NCBI GenBank assembly: GCA_050014195.1
Contig: JBEKDT010000015.1
Coordinates: forward strand, 1 to 64,000
Length of the DNA stretch: 64,000 bases
DNA from: Desulfomonilia bacterium
GTDB taxonomy: Bacteria; Desulfobacterota; Desulfomonilia; UBA1062
Reading direction: 5' to 3'
Shown: positions 45,571 through 64,000 of the stretch, piece by piece
How positions within the stretch are numbered: position 1 is the first letter of the stretch
How the letters are laid out: every line of letters starts with the position of its first letter
Made by a program: the position numbers and the translations under genes
Notes under the pieces: model-generated
The model's database searches: none
Told to the model about the DNA's origin: nothing
What the model saw: only the letters and a program-made list of their open reading frames with translations

Positions 45571-45609
45571 AAAAAAATCACGAGCCGGTTACTCGCCCGG
45601 CTCGTGATT
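45571..45609 (-). terminator. Rho-independent terminator of the leftward small-protein operon
   Basis: Minus strand AATCACGAGCCGG-loop-CCGGCTCGTGATT followed by a T-run. Confidence 0.8.
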
Positions 45610-45663
45610 CTGTTTGGTGCGATACTGTTATGATATTCTCTTGTACCGGCTGGAGGCAATTTC

Positions 45664-45930
45664 CTATGCCTGATGATGAGTTATCCTTGATCTGTTAATC
45701 TGCTCTCGTGTCTTGGCGAAATCCATATATATTCTCGCAATGCACAACGATATTGCCAATACAAATAACCCAAGCATGAATGCCGGCTCGGTGTTGAACT
45801 GTACATCTATCCATCGACCGACAAACAGGAACAGGAATGAGGAGATAACCAGGGTGAAGCTCCACGCACTCATTAATATGATATGGTTCAGATTCTTGTT
45901 CGTGAGCTTGTTTCTTCGAACCCTTTTCAT
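45664..45930 (-). CDS. AtpZ/AtpI (ATPase gene 1)-like two-TM protein, copy 1
   Basis: GRWIDVQFNTEPAFMLGL matches the G.W.D..F.T.P.F...GL signature; AAGGAGG RBS. Confidence 0.75.
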   Translation of the reverse strand: MKRVRRNKLTNKNLNHIILMSAWSFTLVISSFLFLFVGRWIDVQFNTEPAFMLGLFVLAISLCIARIYMDFAKTREQINRSRITHHQA

Positions 45931-46010
45931 CGCTGTTACCTCCTTTCCTTCTTTTCCCGCCCGTACCCCGTTAGGGAAGGGGCGGGATAACCTTACCTCT
46001 TAAGATCTTC

Positions 46011-46286
46011 TCAGCTCACCAGGCCCTTCACTGCTTCGATCACCGGGGCGGTGAACAGGGCAACCAGCACTGCATACAGTGCAAAGGACCCGACTGCCTC
46101 GCTGAGGTACATCCTCGGATAACGGTATTTCAGGGAAATGATGGTGAGCCCGCCCATGATCAGGCAGCCAAGGTGGAAGTAGGGGAAGTTCCCGCCGCCG
46201 GAAGTCTCTGCCGCTGCAAAGGCAAAGGTACCGGTGATCATCACCACGAACATCGCTACGATTATTGTCTGAATTGTCCTTTTCAT
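46011..46286 (-). CDS. Small membrane protein with signal peptide (paralog of 47151-47327)
   Basis: AAGGAGG RBS 8 nt before ATG; signal peptide ending AFA; two TM segments. Confidence 0.75.
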   Translation of the reverse strand: MKRTIQTIIVAMFVVMITGTFAFAAAETSGGGNFPYFHLGCLIMGGLTIISLKYRYPRMYLSEAVGSFALYAVLVALFTAPVIEAVKGLVS

Positions 46287-46328
46287 TGTCATTGCCTCCT
46301 TCATGATTGCTTGATGCTTATAGATAAG

Positions 46329-46343
46329 GCAAGCCCCGTGCCA
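46329..46343 (-). promoter_or_regulatory. Sigma54 -24/-12 promoter (leftward operon)
   Basis: TGGCAC-GGGGC-TTGC, exact consensus spacing. Confidence 0.88.
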
Positions 46344-46372
46344 AGTGTGCTGGATCAGCGATGAATACCTTA

Positions 46373-46385
46373 TAACATATTGATA
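46373..46385 (-). promoter_or_regulatory. IHF binding site
   Basis: TATCAATATGTTA matches WATCAANNNNTTR, about 30 bp upstream of the sigma54 promoter. Confidence 0.65.
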
Positions 46386-46547
46386 TCGAATCCATTTAAC
46401 TGAATATCCACTCAATAATCGCATGCCTCAATCCCTAAGAAAACCGGGATTCATTAAAAAAAACGTTGAGAGGTATTCAATGAAACGTTTAATCCGGTCC
46501 CTCTTGACAGACCACATTTTCAACCTTCACCCTTGACTCTCTTCAGC

Positions 46548-46856
46548 ATGAATGTCATGCCTGCCGCTATCAGGGAAAGAATGGGACTGCTCCCTAACCT
46601 TTTCGATGACAGGAGGCGAAATAGTAGGCTTCATGTCGACAAGACCGTATCCTGCATTCGCAATGGGGATGAAATGCAGACCGCACATCTGATCAATATC
46701 AGCAGGAGCGGTATGTATGTTGAGATCGATACCCCGTCTGATATCGGGCAGGAGATGTTCATCAACCTTACCGAGAGAAACCTCGGGGTGTTTACGCGGG
46801 TGAAAGGGCGGGTGATGAGGAGATCTGAAAGGGGTATGGCTATCCGGTTCATCTGA
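46548..46856 (+). CDS. PilZ domain protein
   Basis: RxxxR (DRRRNSR) and NISRSG motifs, GMAIRF end. Confidence 0.85.
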   Translation: MNVMPAAIRERMGLLPNLFDDRRRNSRLHVDKTVSCIRNGDEMQTAHLINISRSGMYVEIDTPSDIGQEMFINLTERNLGVFTRVKGRVMRRSERGMAIRFI

Positions 46857-46929
46857 CCGGCCCCTGGCTTGCAGGTTATGTTCCAAGATCAAGGCCTTAA
46901 ACCTTAGCGGGGCATTCTTTTATGTCCTT

Positions 46930-47024
46930 TGCCACTTTGTCACATTTTGACCATGGTTACCCTACGGTTTTGCCACTTTGTTCATGCCCGGTATCTTCAT
47001 TGATGCACTTGTGCCATTTTGGCA
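46930..47024. promoter_or_regulatory. Three phased candidate enhancer-binding-protein sites
   Basis: TGCCActtTGTCA (46930), TGCCActtTGTtc (46971), TGCCAtttTGGCA (47012), spaced exactly 41 bp. Confidence 0.6.
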
Positions 47025-47059
47025 AAAATATGGTGCGAGAGAATATTTATAGTTAGTAT

Positions 47060-47072
47060 AATCATTGAGTTA
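47060..47072 (+). promoter_or_regulatory. Probable IHF site
   Basis: AATCATTGAGTTA (one mismatch to WATCAANNNNTTR) between the enhancer sites and the promoter. Confidence 0.5.
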
Positions 47073-47087
47073 TAAACCATGATCATC

Positions 47088-47102
47088 TGGCACGGCCCTT
47101 GC
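47088..47102 (+). promoter_or_regulatory. Sigma54 -24/-12 promoter (rightward operon)
   Basis: TGGCAC-GGCCC-TTGC followed by CTTAT, as in the leftward promoter. Confidence 0.88.
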
Positions 47103-47150
47103 CTTATGTTAGATAGAAAGAAAAAAACAAACCCCAAGGAGGGTAAGACA

Positions 47151-47327
47151 ATGATGACATTATGGATCGTTCTCGGCGCACTGTTCATGACCGGCATAGG
47201 CATCAGGTTCACCTACAAGGTCCTTGGACTCACCCCGGCCGAAGCAACCGCAGTGTTCGTCCTGGTGGTCACCCTGATCGGCATCAACACCGGCCCGGCA
47301 CGCGAGATCCTCATGAACCTGTTCTAA
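47151..47327 (+). CDS. Small two-TM membrane protein (paralog of 46011-46286)
   Basis: AAGGAGGG RBS; 58 aa hydrophobic; aligns with the leftward protein. Confidence 0.75.
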   Translation: MMTLWIVLGALFMTGIGIRFTYKVLGLTPAEATAVFVLVVTLIGINTGPAREILMNLF

Positions 47328-47366
47328 GGCTTCTGCGGGATAGCAAAACGGATAAGGAGGAAGGCC

Positions 47367-47606
47367 ATGAAACGGATAAAGACAAAGAAAGAGAAGATCG
47401 AAAGGGCACTGGCCAACAGGCTCAGCAGGATCAGCGCATACAGTCTGGTGCTCGTTACGATGACCTTCCTCGGGCTGTACGGTGGGATGGAGCTTGACAA
47501 GATGACGGGCATGACGCCCAACTTCACCTTTGTCTGCCTGATCGTCGGCATCGCCCTGGGCTTCAAGGGCTTCATCCAGGAAGTCATCGCAGAGAGAAAG
47601 GCGTAA
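47367..47606 (+). CDS. AtpZ/AtpI-like two-TM protein, copy 2
   Basis: GMELDKMTGMTPNFTFVCLIVGIALG signature; AAGGAGG RBS. Confidence 0.78.
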   Translation: MKRIKTKKEKIERALANRLSRISAYSLVLVTMTFLGLYGGMELDKMTGMTPNFTFVCLIVGIALGFKGFIQEVIAERKA

Positions 47607-47611
47607 GTACC

Positions 47612-47704
47612 ATGACGGTTCTATTCATCACCATGGGCATAACCGCGCTGCTCGCGCTCACTGTGAGGTTCCCCAGGCACACGGGTGCACATCACGGGCA
47701 CTGA
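47612..47704 (+). CDS. Possible 30-aa single-TM peptide with His-rich tail
   Basis: MTVLFITMGITALLALTVRFPRHTGAHHGH; starts 5 nt after the previous stop; host-like codon usage. Confidence 0.5.
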   Translation: MTVLFITMGITALLALTVRFPRHTGAHHGH

Positions 47705-47803
47705 GCAACACTTATAACAACCGGGTCCACCTTACACAGAACTTACCAAGGATATCCAGCAACCTTCCCTGTAAAGCCGGCCTTCTCCACGACAAACCAT
47801 AAT

Positions 47804-47832
47804 AAAACGAAAACGACCTAGGGTCAGGTCGT
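47804..47832 (-). terminator. Probable terminator after the response regulator
   Basis: ACGACCT-loop-AGGTCGT hairpin followed by T-rich sequence on the minus strand. Confidence 0.5.
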
Positions 47833-47866
47833 CTTGGGATATTTTGATAAAACCTGTTGCAGTCCC

Positions 47867-49237
47867 CTACATCACCTCTTTGCCATGCTGGATATTATAC
47901 TTCCTGATCTTGTAATGCATGACCCTGCGGGAGATGCCGAGGATCTGGGCTGCATCTTTCTGGACCCAGTTGGACTTTTTAAGTGCCTGGATAAGCATGG
48001 TCTTCTCATGGGATTCAATGGGGTTAAGCCCTTCATCAGAGAGTGGAACAGATGTTGTATGGTCGAACATGCCCGACGGCAGGATCTCGTCCGGCGTGAT
48101 GATGGAATCTTTGCTGAGTACCACTGCCGACTGGATAATATTCTTAAGCTCTCTTACATTGCCGGGCCACGTATGGGCAAGGAGCATATCCATGGCCTCT
48201 CGGCTGAACCCGGTCACGGTCTTGCCGGTCTTGTTGCTGAATTCCGTAAGGAAGACCTGGGCGAGGCCGATTATGTCTTCTTTGCGATCTCTGAGCGGCG
48301 GCAGTTGAATAGTGAAGACCTTGAGCCGGTAGAAAAGATCTTCCCGGAATTCACCACAGTCCACTTTAGCCTTGAGGTCGACATTGGTGGCGGCAATTAT
48401 CCGGATGTCCACATGCTTCTGATTGATCTCGCCCAGGCGCCTGAACTCACCGGATTCCAACACCCTCAAGAGCCGTGTCTGCATCTCGGGTGATATGTTA
48501 CCGATCTCATCGAGAAACAACGTCCCGCCGTCGGCCTCCTCGATGATGCCGCGCTTTTCCTTTACGGCCCCGGTAAAAGCACCCCGCCCATAGCCGAACA
48601 GTTCGGCCTCAATGAGAGTGGGGGGGGTAGCCCCGCAATCCATGATAACGAGCTTGCCCTCACGCCTTTTACTCTCATAATGGAGCATCCGAGTTATAAG
48701 CTCCTTGCCGGTGCCCGACTCGCCCAGAACAAGCACGGTGGCGTCCGATGAGCTCACCTGGCGGACAAGGGCCAAGATCTTTTTCATGGCAGGGCTTTCG
48801 GCATAGATATGCTGCTCTATGTCGTCTCCGATCTCCTGCTCGAGGTAGCGCACCCGCTGCTTGAGACTGCGCTTTTCAATAGCCTTCTCGATCTTGGCCA
48901 CCAGTTCTATGGCCTCGAACGGCTTCACAAGGTAGTCATGAGCACCTTCTTTGATAGCCTGAACAGCGCCCTCGATGGAGCCGTAAGCAGTGAAGATGAT
49001 GACCTCGATGTCAGGGTCTATCTTCTTGGCCTCTTTGAGGACCTCCATGCCGTCCATGTCCGGCATCTTGAGGTCGGTAATCAGGACGCTGAAATTGTCC
49101 TTCCTGAGGGCATCCAGGGCCTTATTGGCCTTCGTATATCCAACGGCATAGAAACCCATCGCTTCAAGCCTCGCAACCAAGACCTCCACGATGTCGGGCT
49201 CATCATCAAGGATGATGATCTTATGCCTGGGATTCAT
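47867..49237 (-). CDS. Sigma54-dependent response regulator (NtrC/GlrR-like)
   Basis: Receiver, GESGTGKE, intact GAFTGA, FLDEIG, WPGNVREL, Fis-type HTH. Confidence 0.97.
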   Translation of the reverse strand: MNPRHKIIILDDEPDIVEVLVARLEAMGFYAVGYTKANKALDALRKDNFSVLITDLKMPDMDGMEVLKEAKKIDPDIEVIIFTAYGSIEGAVQAIKEGAHDYLVKPFEAIELVAKIEKAIEKRSLKQRVRYLEQEIGDDIEQHIYAESPAMKKILALVRQVSSSDATVLVLGESGTGKELITRMLHYESKRREGKLVIMDCGATPPTLIEAELFGYGRGAFTGAVKEKRGIIEEADGGTLFLDEIGNISPEMQTRLLRVLESGEFRRLGEINQKHVDIRIIAATNVDLKAKVDCGEFREDLFYRLKVFTIQLPPLRDRKEDIIGLAQVFLTEFSNKTGKTVTGFSREAMDMLLAHTWPGNVRELKNIIQSAVVLSKDSIITPDEILPSGMFDHTTSVPLSDEGLNPIESHEKTMLIQALKKSNWVQKDAAQILGISRRVMHYKIRKYNIQHGKEVM

Positions 49238-49800
49238 TGCTTTCCCCTGCGTTTAACCGATTCAATATGGATCTGCTCCAGCTTGTTCAGCTTATAACTG
49301 AGCAGTTCAATCTCTTTTTTAATGTCCTCGTTCTCCTTCTTCAAGGTCTCGATCTCTTTTTTTGCCTGTTCCAGGCTCCGTTTCAGTTCTTCACTCTCCT
49401 TGGCATATTCCTTGGCCTTGGCAGCAGACTTCTGAAAGGTCTCCATACGCTCAAGGAGTTCCAGCAAGTAGCCTGCCTCCACCTTCAGGTAACCAGGCAA
49501 TAAGGTTTGACCCCTTATCTCTTCCAGATCGGTCTTCATAATACCGAAGGCATATTCACCCTTTACGATGGAGTCCATGATGAGCGCGATCTTATGCCGG
49601 GCCACAAGCGATGGCGGAAACACAGGTTCCAAGGCCTTGAGGTTCTCTTCAGAGGCCTTGCCATGGGAGAGATTTTTCTCGGCACTGTCAATCTTCTTGC
49701 CCAGAATATCCGTCGCACATCCCTGGAAGAGAAGCATGGTCATGAGCAGCAGGGAGGCTGAAAGAAAAGATACTCCCCTTGCCCACATTGCTTTGTACAT
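49234..49800 (-). CDS. Coiled-coil lipoprotein (QseG/YfhG-like position and architecture)
   Basis: GGAGG 8 nt before ATG 49800; lipobox FQGC; C-terminal coiled coil ending KL.KLE.I; between kinase and regulator. Confidence 0.7.
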   Translation of the reverse strand: MYKAMWARGVSFLSASLLLMTMLLFQGCATDILGKKIDSAEKNLSHGKASEENLKALEPVFPPSLVARHKIALIMDSIVKGEYAFGIMKTDLEEIRGQTLLPGYLKVEAGYLLELLERMETFQKSAAKAKEYAKESEELKRSLEQAKKEIETLKKENEDIKKEIELLSYKLNKLEQIHIESVKRRGKQ

Positions 49801-51208
49801 ATACCTTTCCTCCATGTGCATCAACGATCCCCCTGGAGATCGCAAGACCGAGACCTATGCCGCCATGGCCCCTGGTGTATCTTGACTGATAGAACTTTTC
49901 AAAGATTCGGGGCAGGTCTTCTTCGGGTATCCCTTTACCGTGGTCCTCGACCTCAGTGATAATGTTATCGTCTGAGTTCCTTAACCTGATCTCTACAATA
50001 GAGCCTTCGGGTGAGTATTTGATGGCATTGTGTGTGAGGTTTGTCAAGACCTGCAGGATCTTGTTCCAGTCCACCATGACCATACAGTCTCCTTGGGTAT
50101 AATCCACGTTGATCTCCACGCCATTGATATCGGCAATGGGTTTGATCTCGGAGATAAACGAAGTGATTACGGAGTTCATGTCATGGAGCTCCATATGGAG
50201 CCTTACCATGCCGCTCTCGATTCGTGACATCTCCAGCAGCTCGGAGACTGTATGCAGGAGCCTCTTGATGCCTTGCCCCATAATCTCCACAAGCCGCTTC
50301 TGTCTGTCAGCGAGATCGCCTGCCAGGCCTTCAAGAAGCAGGCTCGCCGCTTCTTTCATTGAGGTAAGCGGCGTCTTGAGCTCGTGAGATACTACGGAGA
50401 TGAATTCAGACTTCATGTCATCGAGCTCTTTCAGACGTAGCGCCATATTATTGAAAGATTCGGCAAGCTGGCCCAGTTCGTCCTTGGAACCCAGGGCGAT
50501 ACGGTAAGAGAAGTCGCCCTCAGAGATGTGCTTGATGCCGCCCTTAATGCGTTTGAGATCCCTGGTTACACTCCGATAGATGAGGACAGGCACAATAAGG
50601 CCGATGCTCAGGGCCACTGCCAGCACCCACCATGTCCATGCCATAATCTGATCACCAAGCTCCTTCAGGTAGGCGATGTGCGCGCGTAACCGGTCGATGG
50701 CCTCATTGTTCACATAGCGTGCGATCCCCACGATGCCGTCGATCTCGCTGCTGTTGCGTTCAAAGAGCGTCTCCAGCTCCGTGGGATCATCGGGAAGCTG
50801 AGCGAGTTGCGATTGGAATCTGCTCACATAGGCCATCCACAAGCCTTTGCCGTTTTCCACCATGTTCCGCTCAGGCTCGTCGTAATACATGCCCTTGGTG
50901 CCGAGATTATCCCATGCCCGGGAGATATCATTCTCCTGCTGCTCCAAGATGACATGATAGGATTCGTTCTGGAGGAGCATATACTGCTTCCCGGTTTCTT
51001 CTATTGAGATAAGGTTGGCTATGAGCTTGTCCGTGATCTCTTTTTTCTTGTAATCTATCAGATAGATCTTGGTGCTGAGCGTGCTCACCCTTGAAGATAC
51101 CACAAAGAGAACCAGCGTGATCCCGAACAGGACTATTACAAAGACCACATAGGTCAAAATGAGCTTTTGGAGGAGACCCGGTTTTGTCATGCTTAAGATT
51201 ATAGACAT
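49688..51208 (-). CDS. HAMP-domain sensor histidine kinase (GlrK/QseE-like)
   Basis: Two TMs, HAMP (DELGQLAESFN.M), SHELKTPL, NAIKY, GIGLGL. Confidence 0.95.
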   Translation of the reverse strand: MSIILSMTKPGLLQKLILTYVVFVIVLFGITLVLFVVSSRVSTLSTKIYLIDYKKKEITDKLIANLISIEETGKQYMLLQNESYHVILEQQENDISRAWDNLGTKGMYYDEPERNMVENGKGLWMAYVSRFQSQLAQLPDDPTELETLFERNSSEIDGIVGIARYVNNEAIDRLRAHIAYLKELGDQIMAWTWWVLAVALSIGLIVPVLIYRSVTRDLKRIKGGIKHISEGDFSYRIALGSKDELGQLAESFNNMALRLKELDDMKSEFISVVSHELKTPLTSMKEAASLLLEGLAGDLADRQKRLVEIMGQGIKRLLHTVSELLEMSRIESGMVRLHMELHDMNSVITSFISEIKPIADINGVEINVDYTQGDCMVMVDWNKILQVLTNLTHNAIKYSPEGSIVEIRLRNSDDNIITEVEDHGKGIPEEDLPRIFEKFYQSRYTRGHGGIGLGLAISRGIVDAHGGKVYVQSNVGKGSIFSFSLPAAHDHASLPGMCDGYSGQED

Positions 51209-51241: not shown

Positions 51242-51580
51242 ATGTCATCTATACTCCTCTCGGCACTAAGGGCAAATGAAATCCTTCAGGCCAACGCCTC
51301 ATCCAATGTGGCGAACATGAACACGCCTGAATACAAGGCAATTCAGACCACCATCGTCCCATCGATCGACGACTCGGTGGATGTGACTACAACCAGCTCC
51401 GATGATCCCGCCCCTCTGGACACTGAAGGCCGCACGGGATCGAACGTGGATGTCACAAAAGATATCACCGACATGATGCAGGCTAAAACGGGTTTCGAGG
51501 CCGCGCTGAGTGCCATCAGCGTCCGTGAGGGTATGCTCGACGACCTTATGACTTTATTAACGAGAGAGCGGCCTCAGTAG
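51242..51580 (+). CDS. Orphan flagellar basal-body rod-like (FlgC-type termini) small protein
   Basis: SNVANMNTPEYK and SNVD..KDITDMM.A..GF.A terminal motifs; no other flagellar genes in the window. Confidence 0.7.
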   Translation: MSSILLSALRANEILQANASSNVANMNTPEYKAIQTTIVPSIDDSVDVTTTSSDDPAPLDTEGRTGSNVDVTKDITDMMQAKTGFEAALSAISVREGMLDDLMTLLTRERPQ

Positions 51581-59611: not shown

Positions 59612-62287
59612 TTGACCACTGAGAAGATCACCCTTTCCCAGCTCGAATCCTTTCTCTTCAAGTCCGCCGATATCCTGCGGGGCAAGATGGATGCCTCGGA
59701 GTTTAAGGAATTCATCTTCGGCATGCTGTTCCTCAAGCGCCTCTCCGATGAGTTCGACCGCAAGCGCGAAGATTTGCGCAAAAAGGACTTCGCGCATCTT
59801 AAGGATCAACCTGACCTCATCAAGGAACTGCTGGAGGACAAAACCTCCTACGGCGAAACCTTTTTCGTTCCCGTGCGCGCCCGCTGGCACGAAGCCTGGA
59901 CCGACGAGAACAATGAGCTGGTTCCGGCCCTTAAGGACCTGAAGTATGACATCGGCAACATGCTCAACAAGGCCATTGCCGCGGTTGAAGAGGAAAACGA
60001 CGCTTTGGCCGGTGTGCTGAAGAACAACATCGACTTCAATGCAGTCAAAGGCAAGACCAAGATCCCGGACCAGAAGTGGAAGGAACTGCTGGACCACTTT
60101 AACCAACCTGGGTTCGTGCTGGTCAATGACAACTTCGAGTTCCCTGACCTGCTGGGAGCGGCCTACGAATATCTGATCAAGTTCTTTGCCGACAGTGCAG
60201 GCAAGAAAGGCGGCGAGTTCTATACACCCGCCGAGGTGGTGCGTCTGCTGGTGCAGCTTACTAAGCCCGAGGCCGGCAACACGATCTACGACCCCACTGC
60301 CGGCTCAGGCGGCTTCCTGATCCAGGCGCACCAATACGTGGAGGAACAGGGACAGGACCCGAATGACCTCGCCCTTTACGGCCAGGACTCCAACGGCACG
60401 GTCTGGTCCATCTGCAACATGAACATGATCCTCCACAACATTACCCGCTTCACCATTGAGAACGGCGACACCCTGGAGGACCCGCAGATCCTGGAAAACG
60501 GCCAGGTGCGCAGATTCGACCGAGTGCTGGCCAACCCGCCCTTTTCTCAGAACTACAGCCGGGCCAATCTGAAATTCCCGGAACGCTTCCGCGAGTGGTG
60601 CCCCGAGACCGGCAAGAAGGCCGACCTCATGTTCGTTCAGCACATGCTGGCCAGCCTCAAGCAGCGCGGCCACATGGCCACCATCATGCCCCACGGGGTA
60701 TTGTCTCGGCGTGGCAAAGAAAAGCTCATCCGCGAGATCTTCATTAATGACGACGTGATCGAGGCCATCATCAGCCTGCCACCCGGCCTCTTCTATGGCA
60801 CCGGGATATCTGCCTGCGTCATCGCGGCGAACAAGAACAAGCCCGATGAGCTGAAAGAGAAGGTGCTGTTCATCAATGCCGACCACGAGTACGCCGAAGG
60901 CAAGGCCCAAAACAAGCTGCGGCCCGAGGACATCGAGAAGATCGACTTCGTGTTCACCCACAAGCTGGAAATCCCCAAGTACAGCCGCCTGGTGGACAAG
61001 GCCGAGATTGTGGATCTTCACGACTACAATCTCAACATAAGGCGTTATGTGGATAACACCCCTGACCCGGAACCGGAAGATGTGCAGGCCCACCTGATCG
61101 GCGGCATCCCCGAGGCAGCGGTCGCCTCCCGCGCTGCCGATTTTGCCCGCTTCGGCATACAGCAGGCAACGCTCTTTCAGCCCGAACGCCCAGGTTACCT
61201 CGCCTTCCTGTTACATATTGAAACCAGGCCCGCCATCAAGACCGTGCTCGAAGCTGACCCCGCACTCCTACAGACGCTCGCCGGCCACCACGATGCCCTG
61301 GAGGCCTGGTGGGCTGTGGCCCAGGTCGATTTTGCCGGGCTGCGCGATGGCAGAAAGATGCCGGAGGTCCGCCATGAGCTGTTGAAAACGCTCAAGTGCA
61401 AACTTATTCCTTTGCACGTGCTCGATGAATTCAAGGCCGCCGGGGTATTTGTGAACTGGTGGCAGCAGATCCGCTATGACCTGAAGACCATCATCTCTAT
61501 GGGCTGGCACCACGGCCTGATCCCTGATGAATACCTCATTGCCGAATTCTTCCAGTCGGAGGCAGATGGAATAGAAACATTGGAGGCAAGGATCAGCGAG
61601 GCCCAGGGCGAGCTGACCGAGGCGGTGGAGACCGCACAGGAAGTGGCCTCTTATGAGCCGGAAGAAGACGAGAACGTCACTGCAACTGTCATAAAAAAGG
61701 CTCTCAAGGACCTCATCGACGACCTCAAGACCGTCACGGGAGACTCTGCCCGCAATGAGCTTGAAAACCTGCAGGCTCAGGAAAAGGCCCTCAGTGCCAT
61801 TGAGAAACGAATTAAGGAAAGCAAGGCGGCACTGAAAGCCAAGACTAATGAGCTTGAGCTCAAGCTCCAGCTCAAGCGCCTGGGCGGTGACGAGTTCAAG
61901 GCCGAGAACCTGGAGCTGATCCGGCAGGTGGACAATCAACTGGCAAACCTCGATGGCGCCAACAAGGACGACAAAAAAAAGATCACTGCCTTGCACAAGG
62001 ACAGGACCGTATTGCATGCCCGCCTAGCCAAAACCGACGGCATCCTCAACGCCATAGGCGGCCGTCTCACCGAAGAACAAACCCGAATTCTCATCCTGAA
62101 AAAGCTCTATGACATCGCGAGCAGCGAGCTGAATCGCTATCTGAATTCTGAAAAGCGTGGACTCATTGCCGGGGTAGAGAACCTTTGGGACAAGTATGCC
62201 GTGTCAAGTCGTGAGCTGGAAAAGCAACGAGCTGAAACCTTTAAGGCGTTGGAGGGGTTTCTGGGCGGATTGAGGTATATTAGATGA
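59612..62287 (+). CDS. hsdM: Type I restriction-modification methyltransferase (long form)
   Basis: [33 protein letters not shown]; TTG start after AAGGA. Confidence 0.95.
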
Positions 62288-63549
62288 GGGCTGTGGAAAG
62301 TTGGGATCAAGTTTCTATCGGTGGATTAGTTAATCTTATTAATGGATTTGCTTTCCCTTCGAAAGGATTCACTGAGGGAGAAGGAATACCACTCATCCGA
62401 ATTCGTGACCTCGAACGTCAAAAGACAGAAGTCAATTTCCGAGGCAAATATAACGACCGCTACCTCGTAAAGAGAGATGATCTCTTGATTGGTATGGATG
62501 GTGATTTCCTGACCGTTAAATGGAAAGGAAACGATGCCCTATTAAATCAACGACTCTGCAAGCTGATAACCAAGAATCCAGAAAGTCTTGTTCAAGATTT
62601 TCTTTTCTACAGGATCATTGAGGAGATCCTTCGCATTCACCGCATCACAGCCGCTACGACTGTTAAGCATCTATCTTCGAAAGATGTTCTTGGGATAGAG
62701 ATAGATCTACCTCCCAAGCATGAACAAACTAAAATCGCCGAGATACTCTCGACCGTGGACCGTGCGATTGAACAGACCGAGGTGTTGATTGCCAAGCAGC
62801 AGCGCATCAAGACCGGCCTGATGCATGACCTCCTCACTCGCGGCATCGACAAACACGGCAACCTCCGCTCCGAACAAACTCACCGATTCAAAGACTCCCC
62901 GCTGGGCAGGATTCCGGTCGAATGGGAGGTAGAAAAATGGAGTCATGTTTGTAGTAAAATTCAAGATGGTACGCACTTCTCACCACGAACCGACTCGTCC
63001 GCAGAGTTTAAGTATGTAACATCGAAGAATATCAAATTCGGATTTTTGGATCTGTCTGATGTTGAATATATAGATAAAAGACAGCACGATGAAATATACA
63101 AGAGATGCGATGTATGTCATGGAGACGTACTACTCACGAAAGATGGTGCAAACACAGGTAATTCTGCCATTAATTTTCTGAAAGAAGAGTTTAGCCTCTT
63201 GTCTAGCGTTGCCCTCATCCGACCATTGGAGAACAAACTAACATCAATGTTTTTGCTCCAAACAATTTTGAGCGAAAACGGACAACAGCTTATTAAAGAT
63301 GCAATGTCCGGCCTTGCGATTACCCGGGTTACATTGGAAATTATCAACAACTTTTTAATAAAGATCCCTCCTATCAAGGAGCAAAAAAGCATAGGACAAT
63401 TCCTTGCATTGCAGGATGAGCGAATCAAATTAGATGCAAAAAAACTCGCCAAACTCCGCTCCCTTAAAATAGCTCTCATGCAAGACCTGCTCACCGGCAA
63501 AAAGCGCGTCACTGCCCTGCTCAACGATATGGAGGTTGCATCTCTATGA
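62284..63549 (+). CDS. hsdS: Type I restriction-modification specificity subunit
   Basis: Two AT-rich TRDs separated by conserved P...EQ..I...K.GLM.DLLT repeats; LGRIP.EWE. Confidence 0.95.
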
Positions 63550-64000
63550 GCAAACGTTACACCCCTCCTTACCGTATCACCCCAACAATCCTATACCTCA
63601 TCGAGCAGATCGGCGAGGCCTTGGGCAAACTCCGGATTCATCCCGACAGCGCCACCGTCCCCCTCCTACGGCGCGGCAACCGCATCAAGACCATCCAGGC
63701 CTCCCTTGAGATTGAAGGCAACACGCTCAACCTGGAACAGGTCACTGCAATACTCGATGGCAAACGGGTGTTGGGGCTGCCCCGTGAAATCCAGGAGGTG
63801 CGTAACGCCTTTGCCGCCTACGAAGAACTCCCGAACTGGTCTGCCCATTCCCGCAAAGACCTCCTTGCAGCCCACGGCCTGCTCATGGCCGGGCTGGTCG
63901 ATGAAATCGGGCGGTTCCGGTCAGGAGGGGTCGGCATCCACCGTGGTAAAAAAGTCGTGCATGTTGCGCCGCCTGCCGACCGGGTACCCGCGCTGATAAG
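63546..64000 (+). CDS. Fic family protein, N-terminal part (runs off the window end)
   Basis: ATGA overlap with hsdS; YTPPYRIT...LRRGNRIKTIQASLEIEGNTL...EIQEVRNA...HVAPPADRVP. Confidence 0.85.
   Translation, partial: MSKRYTPPYRITPTILYLIEQIGEALGKLRIHPDSATVPLLRRGNRIKTIQASLEIEGNTLNLEQVTAILDGKRVLGLPREIQEVRNAFAAYEELPNWSAHSRKDLLAAHGLLMAGLVDEIGRFRSGGVGIHRGKKVVHVAPPADRVPALI

Follow-up and report, generated by a model that had tools for sequence, protein, structure and literature searches.

Proteins of the AtpZ/AtpQ family (PF09527) are known from ATP synthase loci, where they are encoded by the small gene that heads F-type atpZIBE and N-type atpDCQRBEFAG operons. In one report, which places PF09527 proteins in atp loci, UncI/AtpI is reported to aid assembly of the c-ring (PMC4154653); in another, atpZ and atpI are said to be implicated in magnesium import (PMC3543383). 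Here we describe two small divergent operons, A and B, in a 64,000-nucleotide stretch of DNA from a Desulfomonilia bacterium (GenBank assembly GCA_050014195.1, contig JBEKDT010000015.1, positions 1 to 64,000; hereafter the window). Each operon pairs an AtpZ-like gene (A2 or B2) with a gene for a small hairpin protein (A1 or B1) behind a sigma-54 promoter (Table 1). We hold with good confidence that A and B are two related, dispersed, multi-copy cassette families with separate regulation. The best overall explanation of the data, which we consider moderately probable, is that these separately regulated cassettes make small-subunit membrane assemblies with AtpZ-like partners and are linked to a c-ring.

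A2 and B2 resemble AtpZ and AtpQ in their two-helix layout, in a G..D....P.F-type motif and in scoring above the family cut-off, at 30.6 and 39.9 bits, respectively, against a PF09527 gathering score of 26.6 in Pfam. This bears out the assignment made in an earlier, sequence-only reading of the window. The two proteins were related to each other (BLASTP E=6e-8), and A2, B2 and the genome's own AtpZ were about equally distant, with 27-44 bits in all three pairwise comparisons; by these scores they look like three sister branches. With the NCBIfam model TIGR02230 (putative F0F1-ATPase subunit), B2 reached 12.1 bits against a cut-off of 46.7 and A2 gave no match. Unlike AtpZ and AtpQ, A2 and B2 are encoded outside atp operons, with no atp gene near either operon in the window; they lie 3' of a hairpin gene of a new family rather than with atpI-atpB-atpE, and they are sigma-54-driven, with up to 7 extra copies per genome. 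The lack of an ATP synthase, remarked on in the sequence-only reading, therefore holds within the window. However, the genome does have F-type and N-type atp operons with PF09527 genes of their own (contigs C1 and C2), and operon A is linked to an orphan c-subunit gene, as set out below.

The hairpin proteins A1 and B1 matched each other at E=0.002 in BLASTP (28% identity) and at 79% probability in a profile-profile comparison (E=1.5e-5, 52 columns). Their merged alignment has invariant G9, G15, I18, E31-A32 and P49, with the Glu at the start of helix 2, and a joint profile search recovered forms intermediate between the two. These comparisons give moderate support to A1 and B1 being distant paralogs with a conserved Glu, as had been proposed. 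Neither they nor B3, the third gene of operon B, had any significant match in Pfam or NCBIfam. The best matches of A1, to Vma12 (E=0.32) and WGxxGxxG (E=0.38), were non-significant, both fell on the signal-peptide region, and both were rejected. In a protein atlas, A1 retrieved its own 'hypothetical protein' clusters alone, with a proteorhodopsin row at 0.78 lying under the lead level. UncI/AtpI (PF03899) and AtpR (PF12966) are, like A1 and B1, small membrane proteins encoded beside PF09527 genes, but they have four helices rather than two and the gene order is the reverse. A1 and B1 did not match PF03899 or PF12966 (Pfam, E up to 1), and kinship with AtpI was rejected at a profile-profile probability of 0.6-0.8% (against an AtpI alignment of 5 sequences).

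All 388 A1 and 296 B1 homologs carry hypothetical or generic names. Their records are metagenome-assembled and are assigned to uncultured Desulfomonilia, Syntrophaceae bacterium UBA1062/UBA6087 and Deltaproteobacteria. A search of 1.84 billion protein representatives with the joint A1/B1 profile gave 48 clusters at E<=0.001, one of them a spurious long repeat protein. The open-access full-text literature yielded nothing on AtpZ-like genes under sigma-54, on orphan c-subunit/Cache operons or on A1/B1 hairpins. Within the scope of these searches, the suggestion that the operons encode undescribed, sigma-54-driven small membrane proteins away from atp operons stands. The small open reading frames are also conserved, with a median pairwise ratio of non-synonymous to synonymous substitution rates (dN/dS) of 0.17 for B1 and 0.21 for B2. 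At least 36 of 50 cassettes have an open frame for B3 with its ..RF.. motif, placed behind B2 or immediately behind B1. These comparisons strongly indicate that the cassette genes are real and under purifying selection.

The window genome comprises 4.2 Mb in 29 contigs, and a whole-genome scan found nine PF09527 genes above the cut-off. One belongs to a canonical atpZ-atpI-atpB-atpE operon and another to an atp operon of the N type; of the remaining seven, five are B2 and two are A2. The genome carries five B cassettes, each with its own sigma-54 promoter, and two intact copies each of A1 and A2. Among 150 sampled genomes of the phylum, one or two PF09527 genes per genome were usual, with expansions in the family of the window genome and in one genome of another family. 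A few families of the phylum carry A and B cassettes, with 1-8 per genome. The joint A1/B1 profile matched 18 of 401 genomes of the phylum, in five families. In the family of the window genome, B1 was found in 21 of 24 genomes (1-7 matches each) and A1 in 18 of 24, one of which was discounted as weak (E=0.005); in the sister family, both were found in 0 of 16. The relatives are all uncultured metagenome-assembled genomes, and repeated cassettes are easily lost from such assemblies.

The pairing of hairpin and AtpZ-like genes recurred in most loci. A B2 homolog adjoined B1 in 36 of 49 related B loci, and A2 homologs lay 3' of A1 in 17 of the 20 loci around A1 in relatives; in a few related B loci B1 stood alone or the locus was cut by contig ends. 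The A cassette often adjoins a B cassette in convergent orientation (L024, L059, L061, L064, L079 and L081), and the divergent layout in the window is therefore one of several. On a contig of <2 kb (L119; G361 contig C59), we also observed a B1 gene whose product is 78% identical to that of the window, in a genome of another family that otherwise has A-type hairpins only; this would be either a binning contaminant or a gene transfer.

Exact matches to TGGCAC-N5-TTGC occur just twice in the window, at the two operon promoters and with the letters given in the sequence-only reading. By chance, ~0.03 matches would be expected for a slightly stricter promoter pattern. Both promoters have the -24 GG and -12 GC elements at canonical spacing. 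In related B loci, an exact TGGCAY-N5-TYGC was present 52-63 nt 5' of 35 of 44 B1 genes, most of the other nine showing TGGCAC-N5-TTGA, and variants of the sigma-54 promoter were visible in the A promoters of relatives. The sequence-only reading had also seen one layout and near-identical promoters in the two operons. This is correct for the -24/-12 core, the part that sigma-54 itself reads, to which the near-identity is limited. It does not extend to the upstream activator sites, which differ, nor to gene content, since B has the additional gene B3.

The B-type sites, TGNCA-N3-TGNCA, lie at -158 and -76 in all five B cassettes of the window genome. Genome-wide, paired sites were found at these cassettes only, and a single site at one sigma-54-like candidate on contig C4. 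Perfect palindromes of this type number 13 in the genome, six of them in B cassettes and none in the promoter of any of the genome's sigma-54 activator genes, 25 in number by their activator domains. Most related B promoters also show a comparable palindrome on their 5' side, and in many of these promoters an A/T-rich element is conserved as ATCAATNAGTTA; we presume that this element (ATCATTGAGTTAT in the window) resembles an IHF site. The A-type site reads TTAAACGTTTCATTSAAT. Each of the 22 A promoters examined has the A-type 18-mer at a fixed distance, ~204 nt before A1 begins. In the genome-wide comparison of activator sites, it was found in the window genome only at the two A promoters. 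Scored on B promoters, the A-site weight matrix performed no better than on random DNA (p=0.15-0.73). Since A and B carry different upstream sites, the two very probably answer to different sigma-54 activators.

For A, the relatives point to a specific activator. In G020, G022 and G023, which represent three genera, A1-A2 lies directly downstream of genes for a dCache-PAS-PAS histidine kinase and a sigma-54 response regulator (HK-A and RR-A). In G017, A1 is immediately preceded by the regulator gene, and on that side the contig ends without reaching a kinase gene. The window genome has orthologs of both on the same contig as the window, 73 kb away (119133-123142), with the regulator 73-81% identical. 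Facing them (contig C15 123816-125628; L120) is a sigma-54 promoter, TGGCATGTCTATTGC, followed by an orphan c-subunit gene (125 aa, signal-peptide-like N-terminus, PF00137 at 62.6 bits) and then a gene for a 429-aa protein in which two membrane helices flank a dCache domain. G020 and G022 have this divergent c-subunit gene as well. In a genome of another family, G114, all of these parts are clustered: one strand carries the regulator, the kinase and a small conserved two-helix protein; the other carries a sigma-54 promoter followed by genes for the c subunit, the Cache protein, a hairpin of 64 aa belonging to the A1/B1 family and a protein like A2.

Three genomes of the family were tested with the A-site matrix, and in each it located a site 5' of the c-subunit gene (p values of 0.002, <0.0005 and 0.01). 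When 25 genomes of the family were compared for RR-A orthologs and A1, 17 had both, seven had neither and one, a fragmented genome, had A1 alone. An ortholog of the Cache protein (>=48% identity) was found in 17 of 401 genomes; 16 of the 17 had a hairpin match, A-type in every case, and the two hairpin-positive genomes lacking the ortholog had type B only. In five genomes of this sample, a hairpin gene lies <=400 bp from the Cache gene. Because of the adjacency in relatives, the co-occurrence and the upstream site common to A1 and the c-subunit gene, we assign the A cassette of the window to the HK-A/RR-A regulon, together with the orphan c-subunit/Cache operon. On genomic evidence, this assignment is strongly indicated.

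Three further observations concern related genes. A second c-subunit-like gene (122 aa) with a Cache protein gene (431 aa, 38% identical) was found at C14 78609-80455 (L121), with no sigma-54 promoter seen; orthologs of this pair were found across the family, and the window genome has four c-subunit genes in total. Just upstream of the type A kinase gene (C15 ~123220-123390, minus strand) is a conserved 56-aa two-helix open reading frame (MREI...) that has no Pfam family and is also present in G020, G022 and G114. In the complete genome G405 (contig C1 584637-585911), the Cache ortholog spans 7 stop codons and is probably a pseudogene; the hairpin genes of G405 lie elsewhere.

The hairpins were also compared with the c subunit itself (PF00137). 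A1 and B1 share its two-helix hairpin, and the genome's c subunits have a signal-peptide-like N-terminus, as does A1. The Glu of helix 2 in A1 and B1 aligns with the ion-binding Glu, and their Pro with its Pro, at the same 18-residue spacing. However, the A1/B1 hairpin is ~25 residues shorter, its Glu lies at the helix start after polar residues and not in mid-membrane, and neither protein matched PF00137 (Pfam, E up to 1). Because the weak resemblance of helix 2 can be taken with the genomic tie to the orphan c subunit, our guess at a function is a hairpin assembly of the c-ring type. An extracellular signal sensed by Cache domains would lead to large amounts of the small hairpin proteins. 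The PF09527 proteins would be their dedicated membrane partners, acting in insertion, assembly or stabilisation, as is thought for AtpZ/AtpI-class proteins with the c-ring. Together, the products would form or alter an oligomeric membrane assembly of the c-ring type, which could be an ion-conducting ring in its own right or a remodelled ATP synthase rotor, and the many cassette copies would provide dosage. Ring or channel subunits with a dedicated assembly factor, as suggested in the sequence-only reading, may thus be involved; the tie between type A and the orphan c-subunit gene supports that suggestion indirectly. That the cassettes act in this way, as hairpin assemblies with dedicated AtpZ-like partners, is a tentative proposal, and a doubtful one. 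A more specific version, unlikely as it stands, is a signal-induced auxiliary c-ring in which the orphan c subunit and shortened c-like hairpins (A1, B1 and perhaps B3) would be inserted and assembled by the AtpZ-like proteins under Cache/sigma-54 control.

A number of observations weigh against this picture of paired, c-ring-linked cassettes. In six loci (L026, L028, L030, L034, L038 and L042), B1, ending in ...NLLG or similar, is followed directly by B3, without B2. Two A cassettes of the window genome are decayed: contig C23 (13077-13409) has an intact A1 and promoter with apparently only a short remnant at the A2 position, and on contig C8 (44867-45307) an intact A2 adjoins an A1 that is cut short and contains a stop codon, the whole lying convergent to a B cassette. 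Given these B1-B3 loci without B2, the lone A1 and the A2 beside a broken A1, an AtpZ-like partner need not be encoded in cis. Helix 2 of A1/B1 gave a non-significant 10-15% probability (E=0.002-0.003) against c subunits, with profile-profile controls of 0.2% (reversed) and 4.3% (the unrelated B2 family). In G114, there is a terminator between the Cache and hairpin genes, no sigma-54 promoter was seen before the hairpin gene, and the A-site matrix found no site within 300 nt at the c-subunit promoter (p=0.35). The only connection of the B cassettes to the c-subunit operon is through their paralogy with A and the frequent adjacency of A and B. Finally, related genomes are not independent, so that the co-occurrence counts are descriptive and overstate the support. 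A structure prediction of the B2 and B1 complex, with both supplied as alignments, scored 0.00, with the partner's own fold uncertain, and is counted neither for nor against.

The regulation of B has to be considered together with the genes beside it. Next to operon B are genes for a histidine kinase, a lipoprotein-like protein and a sigma-54-dependent response regulator, a trio that we liken to QseE-QseG-QseF (GlrK-YfhG-GlrR) of Escherichia coli. The two share gene order, a HAMP kinase, a small secreted coiled-coil/lipoprotein-like protein and an NtrC-type regulator, and GlrR is among the NCBIfam matches of the adjacent regulator (341 bits, below the cut-off). Unlike GlrR, the adjacent regulator scores higher on the AtoC, NtrC and ZraR models, and the middle protein reached 12.1 bits (E=0.19) on the YfhG/QseG lipoprotein family PF13942, below its cut-off of 27. 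The three genes were together in 10 of 10 relatives fetched, and what lies downstream of them varies: PilZ-A1-A2 without a B operon in the sister species G003, a tandem B operon in G007, PilZ only in G008, and in most other relatives a second two-component system. In an alignment of the window with G003, the whole B cassette (~46857-47845) takes the place of 18 bp, with no repeats at the junction. The window B1 protein is 98% identical to that of the copy on contig C2. The DNA of these two copies is apparently near-identical from the activator sites into B3 (~760 bp), pointing to a recent duplication or gene conversion. The comparison with relatives strongly indicates that the B cassette at this site was recently inserted or else is what remains of a variable site.

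The sequence-only reading proposed that both operons form one signal-induced system under this trio; a weaker version of that model would have the adjacent regulator control B only. In its favour, the regulator belongs to the sigma-54 activators and its gene is 160 bp from the B operon; in G007, the gene for the orthologous regulator has a B operon ~1.1 kb downstream (in a different orientation); searches found regulator orthologs (61-97% identity) in no family other than the one with B cassettes; and the B regulon needs a dedicated activator. Against this, the A and B activator sites differ, and A adjoins and co-occurs with another activator, tracking RR-A rather than the trio; the trio as conserved partner of A is thereby excluded. 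The B operon is missing at the site in G003, 8 of 10 relatives have no cassette beside the trio, and in 0 of 49 related B loci is there a sigma-54 activator within 8 kb. For B, the comparison across genomes is uninformative, as the regulator and B1 each occur in nearly all genomes of the family. Four genomes are discordant: in G016 and G021 the regulator was found without B1, and in G020 and G361 B1 was found without an ortholog of the regulator, all four being incomplete or fragmented assemblies or involving small contigs. Control of the twin operons by the trio, or of B alone in the weaker version, is improbable as an explanation of the locus, and a single system is not supported. Taken by itself, the adjacent response regulator is a possible candidate for the activator of B, with perhaps a third of our belief.

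Other functions can be considered. The cassettes could encode small Mg2+/Ca2+ uptake channels induced by cation starvation, after the role proposed for AtpZ/AtpI in alkaliphilic Bacillus. Pfam describes PF09527 as a putative F0F1-ATPase subunit Ca2+/Mg2+ transporter, and atpZ and atpI are said to be implicated in magnesium import (PMC3543383). One B copy lies beside a gene with an MgtC-like N-terminus, a resemblance seen by eye only, but across 49 B and 20 A loci no other cation-related neighbour recurs. In type A, the sensors have Cache domains, for which organic ligands are the more usual, and the link to a c-subunit paralog would go unexplained; we consider cation uptake unlikely. A phage-shock-type response, in which bulk small proteins would stabilise a damaged or de-energised membrane or envelope with no tie to ATP synthase, fits the sigma-54 control, the very small membrane proteins, the several copies per genome suggesting high dosage, and a trio layout that resembles envelope-sensing three-gene systems. 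It too is rather unlikely, given that the cassette proteins scanned had no phage-shock family match in Pfam or NCBIfam and that Cache-domain sensors and a c-subunit gene go with type A. The differences in copy number and location between close species, the insertion or deletion at the window site and the genome copy with 98% B1 identity and ~760 bp of near-identical DNA are what would be expected of selfish or mobile small-toxin modules (holin-like or type I toxin-like) spreading within genomes. However, there is no transposase, integrase, inverted end or target duplication at the junction, and searches of 72,556 plasmid and 50,697 phage records gave no match; the promoters are elaborate, host-type sigma-54 promoters with activator sites, and the cassette genes are under strong purifying selection. 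This last explanation is very improbable.

Table 1. Features of the two operons and their surroundings (window positions 45,576-47,845) and of the adjacent regulatory genes. Signal peptides, membrane helices and topology were read from the sequences, without a dedicated predictor.
Position	Strand	Feature	Basis
45576..45609	-	Intrinsic-terminator-like hairpin with T run, 3' of A2 (strong)	sequence
45664..45930	-	A2: 88 aa, two predicted membrane helices, PF09527 (AtpZ-like)	Pfam
46011..46286	-	A1: 91 aa, signal-peptide-like N-terminus and two-helix hairpin; without Pfam/NCBIfam family	
46329..46343	-	Sigma-54 -24/-12 promoter of A operon, TGGCACGGGGCTTGCCTTAT / TGGCACGGGGCTTGC; 57 nt 5' of A1 start	
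46450..46493	-	Type A upstream activator sites: TTAAACGTTTCATTGAAT and a second AACGTTT element	conservation among A promoters
46533..46856	+	PilZ-domain protein, 107 aa, between the cassettes	PF07238, 43.3 bits
46857..47845	+	Segment of ~985 bp containing the entire B cassette; 18 bp instead in sister species G003	alignment
46930..47024	+	Type B upstream activator sites: TGCCACTTTGTCA (46930-46942) and palindrome TGCCATTTTGGCA (47012-47024)	
47058..47076	+	IHF-site-like A/T-rich element ATCATTGAGTTAT, between activator sites and promoter	
47088..47102	+	Sigma-54 -24/-12 promoter of B operon, TGGCACGGCCCTTGCCTTAT / TGGCACGGCCCTTGC; 63 nt 5' of B1 start	
47151..47327	+	B1: 58 aa, two-helix hairpin, paralog of the A1 hairpin; without Pfam/NCBIfam family	
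47367..47606	+	B2: 79 aa, two predicted membrane helices, PF09527 (AtpZ-like)	Pfam
47612..47704	+	B3: 30 aa, single helix, conserved ..RF.. motif	conservation in related cassettes
47817..47838	+	Weak terminator-like hairpin 3' of B3	
47867..51208	-	Sigma-54-dependent response regulator (NtrC-type) 47867-49237; coiled-coil putative lipoprotein 49234-49845; histidine kinase 49688-51208	

Some neighbouring features fall outside the cassettes. The PilZ gene is a member of neither cassette family and adjoins the response regulator in the relatives G003 and G008. Its open reading frame of 107 aa in the window compares with 145 aa in G003 (window 46420-46560 versus L069 7799-8400), and the sequence that separates this gene from the A activator sites is likewise different in G003; this suggests a rearrangement at the 5' end of the PilZ gene. 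Beyond the kinase gene, window positions 51242-51580 encode a 112-aa protein with the N- and C-terminal motifs of flagellar basal-body rod proteins (PF00460 and PF06429). It is kept beside the kinase in 9 of 10 relatives, with no other flagellar gene nearby. At the end of the window (59612-64000) is an ordinary type I restriction-modification locus, unrelated to the cassettes, with an HsdM methylase, an HsdS specificity subunit and a further open reading frame running off the window.

Few components of bacterial ATP synthase loci are as poorly understood as the PF09527 proteins. In the cassettes described here, AtpZ-like genes lie outside the atp operon, are multiplied and are paired with a new hairpin family, which makes the cassettes a natural system in which to approach the role of the AtpZ class. 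They also offer a clear case of a sigma-54 regulon made of dispersed copies of one tiny cassette, with cleanly defined activator sites. Should an auxiliary c-ring indeed be made, it would be an ion-conducting ring standing alone or else a rotor, swapped in or hybrid, that shifts the ion-to-ATP ratio of the ATP synthase; in the latter case, energy-starved anaerobes would re-gear their ATP synthase on demand. The cassettes thus raise the question of whether c-ring-type assemblies may be remodelled on signal in organisms living near the thermodynamic limit.

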